In this document: positions 23,027-37,507 of the stretch, piece after piece
Numbering within the stretch: the first letter of the stretch is position 1
Layout: every line of letters starts with the position of its first letter
Source: a virus
Length of the DNA stretch: 64,000 nucleotides
Reading direction: 5' to 3' (one strand)
IMG/VR virus record: IMGVR_UViG_3300026183_000930
Coordinates: 32,001 to 96,000 of that record
Translations under genes and position numbers: made by a program
Notes under the pieces: generated by a model
Databases searched by the model: none
The model's input: the letters and a program-made list of their open reading frames with translations, nothing else
What the model was told of the DNA's origin: nothing

Positions 23027-23518
23027 ATGAGAAAACTACTCTTAACCTTATTCTTGTTGTGCTTTTTACCATTTAATTCATTTGCTGAAAACCACGAAGC
23101 CGAACTTGAAAAACAACTTGAGATACAAGAAAAGATCACAAGCATAAGAGACCTTACATCTTGTGGAGTTCTATACTACAATCTCAGTTTATATTTTGCT
23201 GTTGCACACAGTATAGGTGTAGAGTTTAACCACGATCCACAATTACTGGAAACTTATAAAACCATACACCAAAACGCATTTACAAAACACAAACAGTTTA
23301 GTGACAAAAATTTTGAAGTGTATTCTGAATTGATTGCAATGGGTGTTCCAGAAACATTTGCATCTCAACCAGGATATGCTGGACAACGAATGGCCATTGA
23401 CAGTATCACTGCTATGACCAAAAGTCTAACTGAAGACATATCAAAAGGTAATACCTTTCTTACAGGCTTGTTAGATGTTTCAGATACTTGTGATCAAATC
23501 CTATTAGAACTAGACTGA
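23027..23518 (+). CDS. Secreted hypothetical protein
   Basis: Signal peptide MRKLLLTLFLLCFLPFNSFA; GTAAATA-N5-ATG. Confidence 0.65.
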   Translation: MRKLLLTLFLLCFLPFNSFAENHEAELEKQLEIQEKITSIRDLTSCGVLYYNLSLYFAVAHSIGVEFNHDPQLLETYKTIHQNAFTKHKQFSDKNFEVYSELIAMGVPETFASQPGYAGQRMAIDSITAMTKSLTEDISKGNTFLTGLLDVSDTCDQILLELD

Positions 23519-24729
23519 TCTTCTTCGTAATGACAAGTTACACCAAACGGTGCTTGTAACTCTTTGTCATAATTGCTATGTATAACCCAAAGTGTGTCAC
23601 AGTAATTTGGGTCACCCCATGACCCCCAAGGATAACCATCTGTGAACACAATCAGTTTCTTAGGTTCAATGCCTTGTTCTTTCATAAATGTCCAATTGGC
23701 ATCAAACTCTGTTCCACCAAATCCTTGTGGTTGATATGTGGTGATATCTCTGTCTGGTGTAAACACTTCTGGATTATGAACTTCTGTGTCAAAACTCCAA
23801 ACATGAATCTTGTAATCAGTGTACTGATCCATAATACTTTTGACTTCACTAAAAAACACATTCAATTGTCTTTCACTAATTGATCCTGATGTGTCTACTG
23901 CTACACAGATATCAATAGTTTCTGAATTTTTAAGTCCAGGAAATATTGCATCAGTGTGCCAAGACTTTCTGCTGGGTTTCATAAAAGTAAAGTCATCTTT
24001 GATCACTGAAGTTATCTGCTGATCCAACATAGATTTCCAATCCAGTTTGGGTTCAGTTAAATCTTTGATCATTCTTTCAACACTTTTAGGAACATTACCT
24101 GCACCGGCAATCTGAGCTGAATTCAACATTGCATTTTTAACTTCATCTTTGATCTGATCTTTTTCTTCTTTGGTCAAAGCCTTAGGACCTTTTTGGTTGC
24201 CAGGTGCATTTGCAGATCCTGAGTCTTTTTGTTTTTCCATTTCTTCAATCAACTTGTCTATGTGCATGTCAAGAGTTTCTTGTTTTTCTACTTGACGAGC
24301 ATACAGGTCTTCATAAATTTCTTCTGTGTATTTGTCACTGTATGAAGGATCCCATAATCCCACTTCAGGCATTTTACCAATGTGCTGATTTTTAAGATCA
24401 TCATTGATCACATAGTCACCTGCCATGTTCCAATACTGTGGATCCCTTGTGGCACGTCTATCAAAGTGATCATAAACACAGTGCATCACTTCATGAGCAA
24501 TCACAAAGTCCAATTCATCATCTGAAAGAGCACCAAGAAAATTTTTGTTATAATAAAGATGTTTGCCATCAGTGGCCGCAGTAGGGCACCATTCTGTTCC
24601 ATCTTTGACAATAAGCCTTGTGGCCATATTACCAAAGAAAGCATGATTCATCAACAGTCTAACACGTGATTGAACTATTCGTTTTTTAACTTCATCACTG
24701 TCAAATTCTTTTACTTTTTTTTCTGCCAT
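23494..24729 (-). CDS. DUF2201-type metallopeptidase plus VWA domain protein
   Basis: TAATDG, HEVMH, DTSGS, GGT, FTDG. Confidence 0.88.
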   Translation of the reverse strand: MAEKKVKEFDSDEVKKRIVQSRVRLLMNHAFFGNMATRLIVKDGTEWCPTAATDGKHLYYNKNFLGALSDDELDFVIAHEVMHCVYDHFDRRATRDPQYWNMAGDYVINDDLKNQHIGKMPEVGLWDPSYSDKYTEEIYEDLYARQVEKQETLDMHIDKLIEEMEKQKDSGSANAPGNQKGPKALTKEEKDQIKDEVKNAMLNSAQIAGAGNVPKSVERMIKDLTEPKLDWKSMLDQQITSVIKDDFTFMKPSRKSWHTDAIFPGLKNSETIDICVAVDTSGSISERQLNVFFSEVKSIMDQYTDYKIHVWSFDTEVHNPEVFTPDRDITTYQPQGFGGTEFDANWTFMKEQGIEPKKLIVFTDGYPWGSWGDPNYCDTLWVIHSNYDKELQAPFGVTCHYEEDQSSSNRI

Positions 24730-24734
24730 AACCA

Positions 24735-24839
24735 TTACAGTACCAACCCTGCCAATATTGCTAAAGTAAATCCAAATACTAACCAACCTGCTATGTAACC
24801 TGTACCAAATGCAAGTATTCTTTTTATTAAGTGTATCAT
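24735..24839 (-). CDS. 34-aa hydrophobic peptide MIHLIKRILAFGTGYIAGWLVFGFTLAILAGLVL (not in ORF track)
   Basis: RBS AAGGAGAG; promoter at 24864-24891. Confidence 0.55.
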   Translation of the reverse strand: MIHLIKRILAFGTGYIAGWLVFGFTLAILAGLVL

Positions 24840-24863
24840 TCTGCTCTCCTTGTTATATTATAT

Positions 24864-24891
24864 ATAATAGCACAAAATTGGATTCTGTCAA
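24864..24891 (-). promoter_or_regulatory. Sigma70-type promoter
   Basis: TTGACA...TGCTATTAT. Confidence 0.65.
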
Positions 24892-25027
24892 CCTCTAAAA
24901 ATCGCTTAAATTTGCTTTTTAAACAGGGTTTTAATTTAGGGTGTTCAAATGTACTAAAAACAAAAAGACCCCGCTTAAAAGACCTTAAAATGCGTTTAAA
25001 CCAGGTTTTTTCTGGGTGTTTAGTCAT

Positions 25028-25054
25028 AAAAAAAGGAACAGTAATGTTCCTTTT
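25028..25054 (-). terminator. Terminator after AAA ATPase
   Basis: AAAAGGAACA-TTAC-TGTTCCTTTTTTT. Confidence 0.75.
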
Positions 25055-25075
25055 AATATCCTTTGTAGAAAGGGC

Positions 25076-25124
25076 GGAAAGCCTACTTATTTGATAAGAG
25101 CAGAGAGAGGTAAGCAGGCTCTCC
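25076..25124 (-). promoter_or_regulatory. 3'-UTR hairpin whose loop is antisense to the AAA ATPase RBS
   Basis: 14-bp stem, 21-nt C/U-rich loop; 14/15 complement to leader 26219-26233. Confidence 0.6.
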
Positions 25125-25130
25125 ATATGT

Positions 25131-26213
25131 TTACGCCTCTGTAATTAGAGAGCCGTATCTTTTGTAAAAGTCATCAAAACTAGACAACTTTTTAGGGTTA
25201 AATGGTAGACTGTAAGTCTTAAGAGCAGTTCTGGCTCCTAACACTACCATTTCAGTTTCAAAGTTATTCATCATAAACTTTAAGAAACAGTCTGCCATTT
25301 TATGCCAGTCATCCATCTTTTTGGATTTCTGAGCATTTTCACACTCACCTTTTAACTCATAACACATTGAAGTGATCAGAGTGTACATAGCACTAATCTC
25401 TTTTGTCTTTAGAGATTTCACTTTGCCTTTTAGAATTTCTGATGGATTTGGAAGATCCCCAGAAATCTTTCTGTGAGCCTGAAACTTGGTTGCAAGACCT
25501 TCACCAACAGCACCAGAAATAATATCTGTCATCTGTACAGTTGGCATTTCGTCATCTATCACTTCAGAAACGAAACTCCATGATCTTGGTGTTGCAAAAC
25601 CTCTTGAACTTGATGATGGATCAAAATCATATAAGTCTTGTTTTGCAAATGTTAAATAACCTACAACTTCAGGATGAATTTGGTTTTCTGTAGCCCATAC
25701 TAACCAATCATCAAAGTTAGGTTCCATTTCAATATGAATTACCCTGTTTGCAAGTGGACTAGGCATTCTGTAAGTAACACCTTTGTCACTTTCTCTGTTA
25801 CCGGCCGCCACTACTGACACACCTTTGGGCAACACATAAGTACCAATTCTTCTGTTAAGAATCAACTGATACGCCGCCGCCTGGGTAGCCATTGGAGCCG
25901 CATTTAATTCGTCCAAAAACAATATGGCTGTGCTTTTAGGATCTGAAGGTAGATCAACTGGTGGTGCCCAATCCATTTTGTTTTGTGATTTGTTGTAATA
26001 TGGAATACCTCTAAGATCAGTAGGTTCCATAAGAAGCAAACGTAGATCAATAACTTCACGATCAAGTTTTTGACCTATCTGTGCAATGATATCTGATTTA
26101 CCAATACCTGGAGGTCCCCATATCATTACTGGTCGTTGCTTTTTGATTAGATGCTCTACTTCTGCTATTGCATCTGATGGTCTAGTAGTTCTGTGTGTAC
26201 TAACTTTTGACAT
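25131..26213 (-). CDS. MoxR/CbbQ-like AAA+ ATPase
   Basis: GPPGIGKS, LFLDELN, AAGNR, TPRSW; adjacent to VWA partner. Confidence 0.9.
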   Translation of the reverse strand: MSKVSTHRTTRPSDAIAEVEHLIKKQRPVMIWGPPGIGKSDIIAQIGQKLDREVIDLRLLLMEPTDLRGIPYYNKSQNKMDWAPPVDLPSDPKSTAILFLDELNAAPMATQAAAYQLILNRRIGTYVLPKGVSVVAAGNRESDKGVTYRMPSPLANRVIHIEMEPNFDDWLVWATENQIHPEVVGYLTFAKQDLYDFDPSSSSRGFATPRSWSFVSEVIDDEMPTVQMTDIISGAVGEGLATKFQAHRKISGDLPNPSEILKGKVKSLKTKEISAMYTLITSMCYELKGECENAQKSKKMDDWHKMADCFLKFMMNNFETEMVVLGARTALKTYSLPFNPKKLSSFDDFYKRYGSLITEA

Positions 26214-26254
26214 TTGTTTTACCTCTTTCTGCTTTTGTTAAACTCTATATTGTA

Positions 26255-26282
26255 ATAATAACACAAAACAGAATTCTGTCAA
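26255..26282 (-). promoter_or_regulatory. Sigma70-type promoter
   Basis: TTGACA...TGTTATTAT. Confidence 0.65.
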
Positions 26283-26333
26283 CCAGAAAAATACTGTAAA
26301 AAAATGTTGATTTTGCTAGGTTTTTAAAGAAAA

Positions 26334-26771
26334 TTAAAATTTTTCTTCTGGTAAAGAGGGAGGTTCTTGGTAGTTTTCGTCTATGTATCTTGCTCTGGCC
26401 CATTTGTCAAGATCGCCATCTTGTAGTTTTATATCCAAAGAATCCTTGCCATTGAACAATATCAATTGTTTATTGTCTAAATAATAAGGATAGTTTAGTT
26501 CTCGTTCAAGATATTTGATGTGTACATTTTTGACTTGGAAACCCTGTTTCAAAGGTATAACATAAGTTTTAAACATTGTCTTCAATTCAAACAAACCTGC
26601 TTTGTTTATTCTAAGACTGTTTCTTGCATTGTATTCGTTGTGCCAAATCAAAGGTGCATCTGAATCACCATAATATGGAATATCTTGTTGTTTTTTGATT
26701 GCTTGATCAACAATGCTGTTTCGTTGTTTGAGTAATAGATTAATTACTGTCTGACGATTTAGTTTGCTCAT
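26334..26771 (-). CDS. Hypothetical protein
   Basis: 145-aa ORF. Confidence 0.65.
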   Translation of the reverse strand: MSKLNRQTVINLLLKQRNSIVDQAIKKQQDIPYYGDSDAPLIWHNEYNARNSLRINKAGLFELKTMFKTYVIPLKQGFQVKNVHIKYLERELNYPYYLDNKQLILFNGKDSLDIKLQDGDLDKWARARYIDENYQEPPSLPEEKF

Positions 26772-27063
26772 CTTGTTGTTCTGTTATAACTTTTCCAGAA
26801 GTAAGTTTTACCACTTGAAAATCTTTGCAATTAAATCGTTTGTTTAATCTTTCAGCAAGATTAAAAGCATGACCTGAATTTGAAAAGGATACTTTTTTGT
26901 ATTTTGGTCCTGGGTAATTTACCAAAGTATTCATACTTCTTAAATTAATAGGTTTACCTTGATAGAACACAGAATAGATTGCATCCGCTTTCAATACTTG
27001 CTCTGCTTTGTACGACTTTGGATTTGTGTATTCTAGTATTATGTCTGGTTTAGGTCTGCTCAT
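26740..27063 (-). CDS. Hypothetical phage protein
   Basis: MSRPKP..., PKYKKVSFSNSGHAFNLA. Confidence 0.7.
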   Translation of the reverse strand: MSRPKPDIILEYTNPKSYKAEQVLKADAIYSVFYQGKPINLRSMNTLVNYPGPKYKKVSFSNSGHAFNLAERLNKRFNCKDFQVVKLTSGKVITEQQDEQTKSSDSN

Positions 27064-36615: not shown

Positions 36616-36680
36616 GGGACTACCCGAAGATAGTCCCGGTTCCATAATGATTAAACAATGAGGGACAAGAACGTTTAATC
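36616..36680 (-). promoter_or_regulatory. Tandem 3'-UTR hairpins of clamp gene; first loop antisense to its own start codon
   Basis: GAUUAAAC-[GUUCUUGUCCCUCAUU]-GUUUAAUC then GGGACUAUC-UUCG-GGUAGUCCC. Confidence 0.55.
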
Positions 36681-36695
36681 TTATAGAAATCATTT

Positions 36696-37442
36696 TTAGT
36701 TGCTTGTCCTTGCAGGTAATACATACTCATACAAACCAATACCTGAATCAATTGCAATTTTCATTGCACCTTGTTCTGCAAAAGATATTGATGCTTGTGA
36801 AGTATCACTTAATTTCAAAATACTCAATGTTTGTGCTAAAGGCCAACTCCATCCTCTTTTGATTTCTGTAGTTACTCCTTTACTGATTGGTATTTCTACT
36901 CTGTCATTTGATCCATCACCAATATAAAACTTTAATGTGTCACCATCAGTTTTTGCAACAAATGTTGGTTGAACACTGCTCATCACTCCAGCAAAGTAGC
37001 TCAAATCTTTTAAATTTTGTTGTGTGGGTTGAATTGTCAAATCCCAATTTACACCTTTGAACTTAACAGTCTTAAGTTTTTCTTCAATCAACTGCGATAC
37101 CATAAATCTATAATTTGCTGTGTATCCATTGCCTGATGTAAATTTTAATTCTTCTGGCACTTGTTCGCCATTTCTTTCATTTGTAACAACTTCAATGTTT
37201 GCTGTCTTGTCAGCATATCCTTCAAAGTTTAAATATCCTGCTAATACTGGCAGTTTACCTAAACCCATTGTGCCTTTAAATTCACTTACAGGATTATGTA
37301 ATTTTCCTTTAAGAACAACTGTTCTATCATCATCCATTGCTTCAATTTCAGTTGCAGTACCATCGCCGCCATTTACTTTGACTGATTGAATAAAACCTAA
37401 TGAATGAGTGTGTTTGACTATGTCTAAGAGTACATCCCTCAT
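36696..37442 (-). CDS. Sliding-clamp-like DNA polymerase accessory protein
   Basis: 248 aa directly after DNA polymerase; C-terminal YEYVLPA; clamp loader in window. Confidence 0.6.
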   Translation of the reverse strand: MRDVLLDIVKHTHSLGFIQSVKVNGGDGTATEIEAMDDDRTVVLKGKLHNPVSEFKGTMGLGKLPVLAGYLNFEGYADKTANIEVVTNERNGEQVPEELKFTSGNGYTANYRFMVSQLIEEKLKTVKFKGVNWDLTIQPTQQNLKDLSYFAGVMSSVQPTFVAKTDGDTLKFYIGDGSNDRVEIPISKGVTTEIKRGWSWPLAQTLSILKLSDTSQASISFAEQGAMKIAIDSGIGLYEYVLPARTSN

Positions 37443-37507
37443 AATATTTTCCTTTCAATGTTCATAAACTAATAATAACAAAATAATATTGGAAAGTCAA
37501 ATGTTTT

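Follow-up and report, generated by a model that had tools for sequence, protein, structure and literature searches.

The ATPase gene and its transcription unit

The window, i.e., the whole 64-kb stretch of viral DNA that was analysed, contains on its minus strand a gene for a MoxR-like AAA+ ATPase. The protein exceeded the Pfam cut-offs both of AAA_3 (27 bits, score 30.2) and of AAA_5 (22 bits, score 26.3), a homologue search yielded thousands of matches, and the Walker A motif GPPGIGKS was invariant across the alignment. The gene is predicted to form its own short transcription unit, which consists of a promoter, a leader of about 35 nt, an ORF of 1083 nt, a 3′-UTR of 105 nt and a terminator, both transcript ends being predicted. 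The following features were annotated, all of them on the minus strand:

26255..26282, minus strand: sigma-70-type promoter-like site, TTGACA-16-(TG)TATTAT, 11/12 consensus positions and a TG extension
26219..26233, minus strand: leader segment AGCAGAAAGAGGUAA, the 5′ partner of the pairing, which spans the Shine-Dalgarno (SD) sequence (from the sequence)
25131..26213, minus strand: MoxR-like AAA+ ATPase gene, 360 aa (from the ORF list and Pfam profiles)
25076..25124, minus strand: 3′-UTR hairpin, stem of 14 bp including two G-U pairs, loop of 21 nt (from sequence and folding)
25124-25111, minus strand: 5′ arm of the hairpin, GGAGAGCCUGCUUA (from the sequence)
25110-25090, minus strand: hairpin loop, 21 nt, CCUCUCUCUGCUCUUAUCAAA (from the sequence)
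25089-25076, minus strand: 3′ arm of the hairpin, UAAGUAGGCUUUCC (from the sequence)
25099..25113, minus strand: anti-leader or anti-SD segment UUACCUCUCUCUGCU, a 14/15 complement to the leader
25060..25073, minus strand: small hairpin of 5 bp, located past the large hairpin and ahead of the terminator, present in the MFE and the centroid structures
25028..25054, minus strand: intrinsic terminator with a 10-bp stem (25054-25031), a 4-nt loop and 7 U (from folding)
23494..24891, minus strand: next transcription unit, given as context and outside the pairing, with a promoter-like site and the partner gene (from sequence and Pfam)

The transcript start was predicted to lie near 26248, based on the promoter-like site. 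The SD sequence of the gene is AGAGG, 8 nt ahead of the ATG (26213-26211), and the stop codon is a TAA at 25133-25131. At the end of the unit, a G+C-containing stem-loop is followed by a U run, as is typical for Rho-independent termination. The large hairpin has no U run and is therefore not a terminator. The phage is present in salt-marsh and estuary samples. Metatranscriptome contigs cover the gene and the 3′-UTR; such contigs cannot show ends, strand or level, and an uncovered part has no meaning. RNA-library contigs terminated at 26227 and 26237 and upstream depth was low, which is a weak hint of a transcript start. At the terminator, one contig stopped at 25033 and others read through. 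The contig joints had short sides (22-30 nt) with 90% likeness and were taken for other strains.

The next unit has a twin promoter-like site at 24891-24864 on the minus strand, followed by the partner gene (24786-23494, minus strand), the product of which contains the domains DUF2201_N (putative metallopeptidase, E 7e-39) and DUF2201 (vWA-like, E 2e-19). The DUF2201 partner gene represents the adjoining vWA-domain cofactor gene that is expected for a MoxR-type ATPase, and the same MoxR-vWA gene pair has been described for jumbo phages (PMC7824862).

Complementarity between the leader and the 3′-UTR

The sequence-only reading had claimed that a 14-bp stem with two G-U pairs and a 21-nt loop is located just downstream of the stop codon, that the loop is an antisense of the gene's own leader including the SD sequence, and that a terminator follows. 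All three elements were retrieved by direct reading, including the terminator with its U run to 25028. The segment UUACCUCUCUCUGCU (25113-25099) is complementary at 14 of 15 positions to the leader segment AGCAGAAAGAGGUAA (26233-26219). It consists of the terminal 3 nt of the 5′ arm and the first 12 nt of the loop, the latter forming the 12-mer CCUCUCUCUGCU, and it is positioned 21-35 nt past the stop codon. The mRNA carries a 3′-UTR motif complementary to its own SD region, as has been found for icaR mRNA.

The 121-nt 3′ region was predicted to fold with -36.8 kcal/mol (z -4.58), and 1 of 200 shuffled sequences was equally stable; the hairpin by itself reached -20.6 kcal/mol (z -4.65). When the 64-kb window was searched for matches to the leader 15-mer with up to two mismatches, three sites were found versus 0.29 expected. 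One of them is the leader, the second is the loop on the opposite strand, and the third has two mismatches. Dinucleotide shuffles of the 105-nt 3′-UTR reached a complementarity of 14/15 in 1 of 3000 cases, and the observed duplex energy of -23.1 kcal/mol in 13 of 3000 cases. The window contains about 80 genes, and thus the match in the window is by itself only suggestive, and the case is carried by the comparative data described below. Whole-mRNA partition-function folding placed the SD sequence in pairing with the 3′ region with a mean probability of 0.79. However, shuffled tails reached 0.15-0.51 and nine loci of clades that lack the feature 0.00-0.63, and this approach was dropped as evidence since such controls score up to 0.5-0.6. 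A helix of 15 bp within a closed loop of 21 nt is impossible without strain or partial melting of the stem.

To analyse the gene specificity of the pairing, all 189 ORF-called genes in the 124-kb record were compared. For pairing between leader and 3′ region, the ATPase gene ranked first of the 189, indicating that the pairing is gene-specific, and the result was the same when the leader window was extended to +12. Among the 189 leaders, that of the ATPase gene was the second best partner for the ATPase 3′ region, and that of the DUF2201 partner gene only the 13th. The possibility that all genes of this phage fold back 5′ to 3′ was rejected, because a genome-wide excess was absent (5 and 3 genes at the 1% level versus 1.9 expected). 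The clamp gene was considered as a second instance and has 8 Watson-Crick and 2 G-U pairs, but it ranked at 4.8% and 18.1%, which is indistinguishable from chance.

The lineage of the window comprises seven distinct sequences, i.e., the window, L007 (identical to L092), L089, L090, L176, L177 and L180, the ATPase proteins of which are 70-75% identical. The hairpin was found at the same place in all seven, with differing stems (for example GGGGAGGUC/GACCUCCCC and GGGGGACUGAAUCU/AGAUCAGUUCCCC), and the loop 12-mer was identical in all seven and located at the 5′ side of the loop. Complementarity of at least 9 contiguous nt to the leader was also present in all seven sequences, in two registers. 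The leader register AGAGAGAGG is used by L007, L089, L090 and L177, and the register CAGAGAGAG by L176 and L180, both leaders of which are devoid of the GG of a good SD sequence. Within this lineage the loop and the leader did not covary. The loop is invariant while the leaders drift, which suggests that the loop is under an additional constraint, e.g., by another partner. An RNAalifold analysis of four 3′-UTRs of the lineage yielded 11 pairs, three double changes and a covariation term of 0; the alignment was spoiled by indels in the stem, and therefore the folds of single sequences were relied on.

To cover the wider family, 161 homologous loci were examined, 151 of which were complete and 144 distinct. 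They are the 80 best candidates out of at least 594 and the 80 best out of at least 567, and are not a random sample; start codons were assigned by rule (the ATG nearest to the aligned start), and transcript ends were predicted. Each leader was combined with the 3′ regions of all loci and vice versa. For 14 leaders the own 3′ region was found among the best 1% of the 144 possible partners, and the same was true of the own leader for 10 tails, whereas 1.4 were expected in each case. At the 5% level these numbers were 24 leaders and 26 tails, compared with 7.2 expected. The window ranked first in both directions. In comparison to dinucleotide shuffles, z was below -3 in 12 of the 144 loci and below -2 in 28.

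The most enriched class was complementarity close to the stop codon. Within the 27 nt surrounding the stop codon, an exact complement of the own leader with at least 8 nt was present in 28/144 loci (3.8 expected), and one with at least 9 nt in 23/144 loci (1.6 expected). After exclusion of the largest clade there were still 11 of 126 loci with at least 8 nt (2.4 expected) and 8 with at least 9 nt (0.7 expected). The distal 3′-UTR contained a complement to the own leader of at least 10 nt in 7/144 loci (1.5 expected). The complementarity proposed for the window was conserved not only in 7/7 sequences of its lineage, but also in other clades. In these, the SD sequence or the 5′ end was paired with the stop-codon region or with the terminator loop, and the sequences involved were unrelated. 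Clade-specific sequence pairs are GCGAGGUCUUA/UAAGACCUCGC, AGGGGUCUUA/UAAGACCCCU, AAGGGGUUAGUU/AACUAACCCCUU, GGAGCGCAA/UUGCGCUCC, GAAAGGAGUA/UACUCCUUUC, GGACACAGCC/GGCUGUGUCC, CACAGCCCU/AGGGCUGUG and AAGCCCAAA/UUUGGGCUU. The stop codon itself co-varied with the leader (UAA with UUA, UAG with CUA, and UGA with UCA).

Covariation was quantified for one clade with 15 aligned mRNAs. In the helix between the SD sequence and the region after the stop codon 84.5% of the cells were paired, and both sides had changed in five of the ten pairs. The helix between the 5′ end and the terminator loop was paired in 93.3% and contained one switch from A-U to G-C (10 versus 4 sequences). The terminator stem, which served as a yardstick, was paired in 88.1%, with both sides changed in five of seven pairs, while slid controls reached 40-53%. 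The covariation score of the clade was reached by none of 500 shuffles. Compensatory changes, which characterize the icaR-type interaction, are present in this clade in the form of natural covariation. In a clade with 18 rows, the terminator loop (UUCUCAG, CCCAG or GUCUAAG) is a complement of the outermost 5′ end (ACUGAGAA, ACUGGGAA or ACUUAGAC), and the partner of the SD sequence extends from the last codon across the stop codon into the following 8-10 nt. At least three anatomies exist, i.e., an anti-SD sequence in a hairpin loop, an anti-SD sequence fused to the stop codon, and kissing of the 5′ end and the terminator loop. Taken together, the comparative data give good support to a selected RNA-RNA contact between the region around the ribosome-binding site (RBS) and the 3′-UTR.

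In two clades of 33 rows each the feature was almost absent, with no positives and one weak row in one clade. At the locus of PA5oct, the closest isolate, the terminator is plain and nothing complementary to the leader was found, and PA5oct was ruled out as a cultured model for the pairing. The DNA similarity to isolated phages comprised 14% of the query at 67% identity and pointed to the PA5oct group, without being informative for the UTRs. The absence from the two clades and from PA5oct indicates that the feature is dispensable for the gene family.

Possible roles of the pairing

The best explanation, to which we assign a probability of about 0.58, is an icaR-like pairing in cis between the 5′- and the 3′-UTR that occludes the RBS of the ATPase mRNA. 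The hairpin loop of the 3′-UTR would display an anti-SD sequence and, once the 3′ end has been transcribed, would pair with the purine-rich leader, either that of its own mRNA or that of a sister copy. The pairing would begin on the 12 loop nucleotides and could spread into the three A-U pairs atop the stem. Coverage of the SD sequence would keep 30S subunits from binding, and the duplex may also render the mRNA susceptible to double-strand-specific cleavage. As a result, ATPase synthesis would have a built-in cap, and translation would be favoured while the transcript is nascent. Formation of the pairing in vivo, a repressive and not an activating effect, and an action in cis are inferred. 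Anti-SD-like sequences are generally depleted from genes, and thus the conserved one found here runs against the general trend; its conservation in a defined place implies use rather than accident.

A rather unlikely but still serious alternative is that the hairpin is the body of a trans-acting RNA, either as a stable 3′ fragment or as the 3′-UTR of the intact mRNA. The invariant CU-rich loop would then be the seed for other phage mRNAs, and the ATPase leader would be one target, resulting in feedback, or a by-product. An invariant 12-mer in seven of seven lineage members with changing stems and leaders is the pattern of an sRNA seed. Three further sites for the 12-mer with up to one mismatch were found in the 124-kb record, all with the complement in minus-strand transcripts, and the reversed-pattern control gave none. 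One of them, with a perfect match of 13 bp, is the RBS of a 193-aa gene. Another is a 22-bp match with one G-U pair inside a conserved 60-aa ORF, with about -50 kcal/mol compared to a background of -14.2 (sd 4.7) in 12,418 windows and a next non-self value of -37.6. However, this match could be a copy at the DNA level; the plus strand of the hairpin reads AERGKQA, and the identical seven residues are found in a homologue of the small protein. The loop paired with the leader of the gene at C1:11560-12141 with -22.9 kcal/mol, slightly better than with the ATPase leader (-21.1), and far better with the site in the 60-aa ORF; both results speak against the preferred reading.

RNA-library contigs over 25033-25262, i.e., the end of the ORF and the 3′-UTR, exceeded the neighbouring upstream contig in depth by a factor of 2-5 in 4/4 runs (228.7 versus 108, 104 versus 19.7, 101 versus 36, and 62-120 versus 41). 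This is a weak hint of a 3′-derived sRNA, but contig depth can neither rank parts of a gene nor measure RNA levels, and the contig breaks coincide with branch points of the graph. In genome fragments of four relatives (70-75 kb, each about 20% complete), neither a further site nor a homologue of the 60-aa ORF was found; at this completeness the search for trans targets was empty rather than negative. The other clades argue against a trans seed as a general explanation, because their complementary 3′ segment is located outside of a conserved loop and co-varies with the own leader.

It is quite improbable that the 5′-3′ pairing closes the mRNA in order to protect its ends from nucleases and/or to recycle terminating ribosomes, with a net effect that would be positive or homeostatic. 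In the clades with pairing at the stop codon, each ribosome that terminates would open the helix and release the SD sequence, so that translated copies would be open and idle copies shut. The 18-row clade would fit, as its 5′ end is paired with the terminator loop and its SD sequence with the stop region, and so would the strong enrichment of the stop-proximal class (23/144 with at least 9 nt). According to the work on hbs mRNA, complementarity of its 5′- and 3′-UTR overlaps the 5′ cleavage site, and pairing of the 5′ terminus is a known protection against 5′-end-dependent decay (PMC5737220). In the window, however, the anti-SD sequence lies in a hairpin beyond the reach of a terminating ribosome, and a clear pair of 5′ end and terminator loop was not seen. 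In addition, occlusion of the SD sequence is reported to normally lower translation and stability (PMC12697547).

It is tempting to speculate, at a rather doubtful level, that the MoxR-type phage ATPase genes have a conserved, modular closed-loop mRNA with history-coupled translation, and that the loop of the window lineage is additionally trans-acting. The 5′ end and the SD region would be held by the stop-codon region, the loop of a 3′-UTR hairpin or the terminator loop. Nascent or actively translated copies would be open, because terminating ribosomes would melt the helix that masks the SD sequence and could be handed back to the start, while idle full-length copies would lock. If true, this would be the counterpart of eukaryotic mRNA circularisation in a bacterial virus, found from covariation alone.

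Very improbable is the absence of any RNA function, i.e., a chance match of a purine-rich leader and a pyrimidine-rich hairpin or inverted repeats acting at the DNA level (recombination, cassette mobility): the window match alone has a local p of about 0.0003-0.004, which is weak in view of about 80 genes and many noticeable kinds of patterns, and U tracts of terminators and CU-rich tails pair quite generally with purine-rich leaders, but chance leaves unexplained the conservation in the lineage, the tenfold excess over cross-locus pairs, the compensatory changes and the top rank among the 189 genes. For a DNA-level role speaks that the big clade has a promoter directly after the terminator, a layout which resembles the mobile promoter/stem-loop cassettes of T4-type phages. 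Against it, the paired segments coincide with landmarks of the RNA (transcript 5′ end, SD sequence, stop codon and terminator loop), and the two G-U pairs of the window stem would be A-C mismatches on the opposite strand.

Comparison with known systems

In type I toxin mRNAs of the hok/Sok type, the 3′ end of the full-length transcript pairs with the 5′ end and the mRNA is translationally inert. This fold-back resembles the contact of the 5′ end and the terminator loop in the 18-row clade, but in the phage locus a small toxin ORF, an antisense RNA and signs of an activating 3′ trimming are all missing. A hok-type fold-back was rejected, since the product is a 360-aa AAA+ ATPase and no Rfam family was found. 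The Rfam scan of 24000-27000 (E up to 10) yielded no family at threshold and seven sub-threshold chance matches, the best with 23 bits versus a gathering score of 48.4. The small RNAs derived from 3′-UTRs of enterobacteria have a terminator-bearing 3′ end and a conserved single-stranded seed. The phage 3′-UTR shares the terminator-bearing 3′ end, a conserved loop and candidate trans targets in the same genome; in contrast to these sRNAs, the complementary segment of most clades shows covariation with the own leader. Masking of an RBS by a 3′ end is exemplified by gene 1.2 of phage T7 and RNase III.

The closest parallel for the preferred reading, RBS masking in cis, is icaR of Staphylococcus aureus, for which this logic was demonstrated by experiment and the anti-SD motif UCCCCUG in the 3′-UTR is proposed to block ribosome access and reported to promote decay by RNase III (PMC3868564). 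In both cases the mRNA is monocistronic and a 3′-UTR anti-SD sequence pairs, or is predicted to pair, with the SD sequence of the same mRNA species, and the icaR report, too, leaves the choice between cis and trans open (PMC3868564). As far as described, the differences are that icaR encodes a bacterial repressor and has a 3′-UTR of 390 nt, while the phage gene encodes a chaperone-type ATPase and uses the large loop of a dedicated hairpin just past the stop codon. Furthermore, the phage pairing is kept across many lineages with natural compensatory changes, and its repressive effect is presumed.

For hbs of Bacillus subtilis a 14-nt complementarity of the 5′- and the 3′-UTR (-19 kcal/mol) shortly upstream of the terminator has been reported, and mutants including a compensatory combination were built to test the effect on the 5′ decay pathway (PMC5737220). 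This link between the UTRs of a short monocistronic mRNA resembles the 5′-end and post-stop helices of the 18-row clade. The paired 5′ site of hbs is, however, described to be located just downstream of hp2 and to overlap the cleavage site between hp2 and the SD sequence (PMC5737220), whereas the usual partner in the phages is the SD sequence itself or the spacer between SD and ATG. Also in Bacillus subtilis, anti-SD-like 8-mers hundreds of nt downstream were reported to pair with the RBS and to lower expression (PMC12697547). Like the phage segment, these are pyrimidine-rich and far downstream, and they are reported to inhibit initiation and to promote decay; in contrast, they are described as deleterious and depleted from genes (PMC12697547), while the phage segment is conserved in a defined place. 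Conserved anti-SD sequences exist despite this general depletion.

The work on icaR, hbs and long-range anti-SD sequences in bacteria indicates that the mechanism as such is not new. Very few cases of bacterial UTR-UTR pairing are known (the literature search retrieved icaR, hbs and a citation of hilD), each based on mutants of one species. The same principle is now found in a virus gene family and backed by natural compensatory changes in several clades. These form a comparative data set for the role of bacterial 5′-3′ pairing, be it repression, timing, end protection or ribosome recycling. The segments may serve as small natural building blocks (about 50 nt) for self-limiting expression, and they hint at a critical dosage of the MoxR-type assembly chaperone in the state uncoupled from its vWA partner.

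The sequence-only reading had stated that it knew of no description of such a feature in such phages. The literature search agreed with this and retrieved for phages only local hairpins that sequester the RBS, i.e., those of the T4 genes e, soc, 49 and I-TevI (PMC3014915). Common to these and the putative phage pairing is that translation is, or would be, prevented by holding the SD sequence or the AUG in a helix, and for T4 it is reported that the form of the transcript decides whether the helix forms (PMC3014915). As described for T4, the masking strand is located just upstream and belongs to longer early transcripts, whereas in the window it lies about 1.1 kb downstream, in the 3′-UTR of the same transcript.

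The ATPase transcription unit and its 3′-UTR hairpin

The ATPase gene and its neighbor lie on the minus strand, with the following features:

26282–26255, minus strand: sigma-70-type promoter-like site of the ATPase gene (TTGACA-16-TATTAT with a TG extension)
Between this site and the ORF, minus strand: ATPase leader, roughly 35 nt
26213–25131, minus strand: ORF of a MoxR-like AAA+ ATPase, 360 aa, with Pfam AAA_3 and AAA_5 matches above the cut-offs
Behind the ORF, minus strand: ATPase 3′-UTR, 105 nt, with one large and one small hairpin plus an intrinsic terminator
24891–24864, minus strand: second promoter-like site, nearly identical to the first, preceding the DUF2201 gene
24786–23494, minus strand: gene for a DUF2201 metallopeptidase/vWA-like protein, the next after the ATPase gene

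Both promoter-like sites matched the consensus (TTGACA, 16-nt spacer, TG, TATTAT) equally well. The ATPase and its vWA/metallopeptidase partner thus each have a promoter-like site of their own, and the pair is split into two units with the terminator between them. In jumbo phages such an ATPase-plus-cofactor pair has been described and proposed to be a virion-assembly chaperone (PMC7824862). The 124-kb virus record that holds the window is estimated to be 35% complete; among isolates, the Pseudomonas jumbo phage PA5oct is nearest, with a protein identity of 52%.

The sequence-only reading had proposed that the loop of the large hairpin is complementary to the Shine-Dalgarno (SD) region of the same mRNA. 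The minus strand was read again, and all coordinates proved to be correct: 25124–25111 pairs with 25089–25076 (14 pairs including two G-U, 21-nt loop), and 25113–25099 is complementary to 26233–26219 at 14 of 15 positions. This leader segment includes the SD AGAGG, 8 nt 5′ of the ATG. The stability of the large hairpin is far above that of shuffles (z −4.65; entire 3′ region z −4.58). When the 3′-UTR was shuffled 3000 times with dinucleotides preserved, the 14/15 match came up only once and the observed duplex energy was reached 13 times; the 15-mer with at most two mismatches occurs three times in the 64 kb, versus 0.29 expected. Because many genes and patterns are open to a reader, the local rarity of the match would not be decisive taken alone.

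The window's own lineage takes in relatives at 70–75% protein identity; closer ones (80–88%) are known from proteins alone. It consists of the window (also L087 and L088; L-numbers denote homologous ATPase loci in viral or metagenome contigs), L007 (identical to L092), L089, L090, L176, L177 and L180. In all seven distinct sequences the hairpin lies directly behind the ATPase ORF, and its stem is wholly different from one sub-lineage to another. The 12-mer CCUCUCUCUGCU at the 5′ side of the loop, which has at least 18 nt, is identical in 7/7. Every leader has kept at least 9 contiguous nucleotides complementary to the loop, in one of two registers: four sequences have AGAGAGAGG, and L176 and L180 have CAGAGAGAG, where the loop is still matched though the GG of a good SD is lost. 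The complementarity is thus conserved in homologues (7/7). Covariation of loop and leader was not found within these seven sequences; the stem co-varies, the loop is frozen, and the leader is still complementary.

In L007/L092 (2640–2665) there is no terminator behind the hairpin. The purine-rich RBS region of the next gene (AAGAGAGAAGAAGGAAAG) starts about 20 nt 3′ of it and has a 7-nt complement in common with the loop, which might also contact this downstream RBS.

Leader-tail complementarity in the ATPase family

The family sample contained 160 homologous loci, i.e., the top 80 out of at least 594 viral-contig relatives and the top 80 out of at least 567 metagenome-contig relatives; three further loci were added by a later motif scan. 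With the window the set came to 161 sequences, of which 151 were complete in both flanks and the stop codon, and 144 were distinct after identical leader-plus-tail pairs had been merged. The ten incomplete and seven duplicate rows are left out of all counts. Every leader, from −25 to +3, was paired with all 144 3′ regions, a null that is conservative because close relatives are included.

With a 1% cut-off, 14 leaders had their own 3′ region among the top partners and 10 tails had their own leader, versus 1.4 expected; with a 5% cut-off the numbers were 24 leaders and 26 tails versus 7.2 expected. The window's pair ranked first in both directions, and in 12 of the 144 the own pair had z < −3 against shuffles. 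The excess was strongest in a 27-nt stretch around the stop codon, where an exact complement of at least 9 nt to the own leader was present in 23/144 versus 1.6 expected, and in 8/126 versus 0.7 with the largest clade left out. In the distal 3′-UTR, complements of at least 10 nt were found in 7/144 versus 1.5 expected.

The 20 rows that passed 5% both ways fall into three deep clades and one isolated row (FastTree, proteins). No such row was found in two clades of 33 rows each; one weaker row is present in one of the two. One of these 33-row clades has at least 11 members (L010, L011, L013, L015, L016, L019, L027, L028, L034, L035, L068; ends read) in which the DUF2201 cofactor gene starts within or directly at the ATPase stop codon, and therefore there is no 3′-UTR. 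This arrangement suggests translational coupling, and 5′-3′ complementarity was not found in that clade. The PA5oct locus has a plain terminator, and a leader complement was not found there. The pairing element was seen only at loci with ATPase and cofactor genes uncoupled as separate units, and from this association it is plausible that ATPase dosage is the reason for the element.

In L024, L030, L081, L116, L131 and their clade mates, the next gene's promoter, TTGACA...TATAAT, lies within 2–4 nt of the ATPase terminator; this terminator-promoter module presumably resembles T4-type mobile promoter/stem-loop cassettes.

The paired segments are unlike between clades (GCGAGGUCUUA/UAAGACCUCGC, AGGGGUCUUA/UAAGACCCCU, AAGGGGUUAGUU/AACUAACCCCUU, GGAGCGCAA/UUGCGCUCC, AAGCCCAAA/UUUGGGCUU). 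One pair, GAAAGGAGUA/UACUCCUUUC, is located in a large hairpin loop, like in the window, and two are in terminator loops (GGACACAGCC/GGCUGUGUCC and CACAGCCCU/AGGGCUGUG). In the 18-row clade the stop codon is part of the SD partner and co-varies with the leader (UAA/UUA, UAG/CUA, UGA/UCA), and the terminator loop is matched by a complement at the very 5′ end of the predicted transcript (ACUGAGAA/UUCUCAG, ACUGGGAA/CCCAG, ACUUAGAC/GUCUAAG).

Pair counts in 15 aligned whole mRNAs (helix; cells paired; pairs changed on both sides)
SD / post-stop helix; 84.5%; 5 of 10
5′ end / terminator loop helix; 93.3%; 1 of 7 (A-U to G-C, 10 versus 4 sequences)
Terminator stem (yardstick); 88.1%; 5 of 7
Slid controls; 40–53%; not applicable

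The covariation score was reached by 0 of 500 shuffles, and the pair counts are conservative because register shifts in three rows were scored as broken pairs. The contacts fall on RNA landmarks: at the 5′ side the start of the transcript, the SD or the spacer between SD and AUG, and at the 3′ side the stop codon, a hairpin loop or the terminator loop. As they are also kept by compensatory change, their action is in RNA.

Gene specificity and other candidate partners

Among 189 genes called mechanically from the ORFs of the 124-kb record, the ATPase gene ranked first for own-leader/own-tail pairing. A genome-wide excess was not found in these genes (5 and 3 at 1% versus 1.9 expected); ranking and lack of excess were unchanged when the leader window was extended to +12. 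Rank 2 in the first test was another P-loop ATPase gene outside the window (G000:C1:8458–9516 in whole-record coordinates, minus strand, with a 3′ flank reaching about 8330; 352 aa, a weak match to Pfam AAA_16 below the cut-off). Its 7-bp hairpin GCAUCAU/AUGAUGC spans the stop codon and has a 21-nt loop with CCUCUCUUC, the complement of the gene's SD GAAGAGAGG; ACCUCUC is present in the loop of a second hairpin, with a terminator behind it. Judged from sequence, its 3′ design is the same as that of the window's ATPase gene.

In a clamp-like gene (window 36616–37450, minus strand) the 3′-UTR loop UGUCCCUCAU could pair with the start AUGAGGGAUG by 8 Watson-Crick and 2 G-U pairs. It was rejected as a further instance, as its cross-gene ranks of only 4.8% and 18.1% are indistinguishable from chance.

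The invariance of the lineage loop suggests another partner, and the hairpin may act in trans on two candidates found elsewhere in the record. The first is the RBS region ACAGAGAGAGGUAA in the leader of a 193-aa gene (C1:11560–12141, minus strand; site L004:1495–1515, about C1:12140–12165), a perfect 13-bp complement of the loop with a duplex energy of −22.9 kcal/mol versus −21.1 with the own leader. The second lies inside the coding sequence of a conserved 60-aa ORF (site L003:1490–1515, about C1:113290–113315, minus strand, in ORF L003:1449–1631; L003 and L004 are pieces of the record), where the hairpin 5′ arm and loop match over 22 bp with one G-U. At about −50 kcal/mol (background −14.2, sd 4.7; next-best non-self −37.6) it is by far the top non-self partner in the 124-kb record. 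This match may instead be a copy at the DNA level, the 5′ arm and loop deriving from an inverted fragment of the 60-aa-protein gene: opposite the hairpin, a 42-codon plus-strand ORF (window 25016–25144) reads AERGKQA, the same seven residues as in the 60-aa-protein homologue P0123. Ten other clusters of this protein were found, and the stretch at the site, which codes GAERGEQA, is variable among homologues.

Proposed mode of action

The element is most likely a self-limiting device of the ATPase gene, a reading that follows the precedent of icaR and work on anti-SD-like sequences in B. subtilis. The SD would be accessible during transcription of the 1.1-kb ORF; as the hairpin emerges, its loop would capture the SD. 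Pairing would start on the 12 loop nucleotides and then spread into the weak stem top. What the sequences show is the complementarity, its excess, conservation and covariation, and its specificity for this gene; we infer that the pairing forms in vivo, in cis and with this timing, and that it represses the gene. Whole-mRNA folding predicts SD-3′ pairing but poorly separates it from controls.

In icaR, a 3′-UTR anti-SD pairs with the SD, makes it harder for ribosomes to bind and favors decay by RNase III (PMC3868564), and anti-SD-like sequences in B. subtilis are effective across hundreds of nucleotides and normally selected against (PMC12697547). A related end-to-end mRNA contact is described for hbs (PMC5737220), and T4 RBSs are masked by local upstream hairpins (PMC3014915). 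Of these, icaR is the closest worked example; 5′-3′ UTR pairing involving the RBS is already known from it as a mechanism class, and by its sequence the window's element would belong to the icaR type. New are the setting in a phage MoxR-type ATPase family, the presentation of the anti-SD in a hairpin loop, the variants that take in the stop codon and the terminator loop, and the backing by natural covariation across clades. T7 gene 1.2 is reportedly a DNA-phage case of a 3′ end masking an RBS. In agreement with the novelty supposed by the sequence-only reading, a description of 3′-UTR-to-RBS pairing in a DNA phage was not found in the literature searched.

RNA-library contigs cover the ATPase unit; one stops at the terminator and two continue past it, and contigs cannot establish transcript ends. 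In 4/4 metatranscriptome runs the contig over 25033–25262 (ORF end and 3′-UTR) was 2–5 times as deep as its upstream neighbor; as contigs cannot establish levels, this does no more than hint at a stable 3′ fragment. The contig breaks at 25233/25262 recurred in all four runs and are probably strain branch points.
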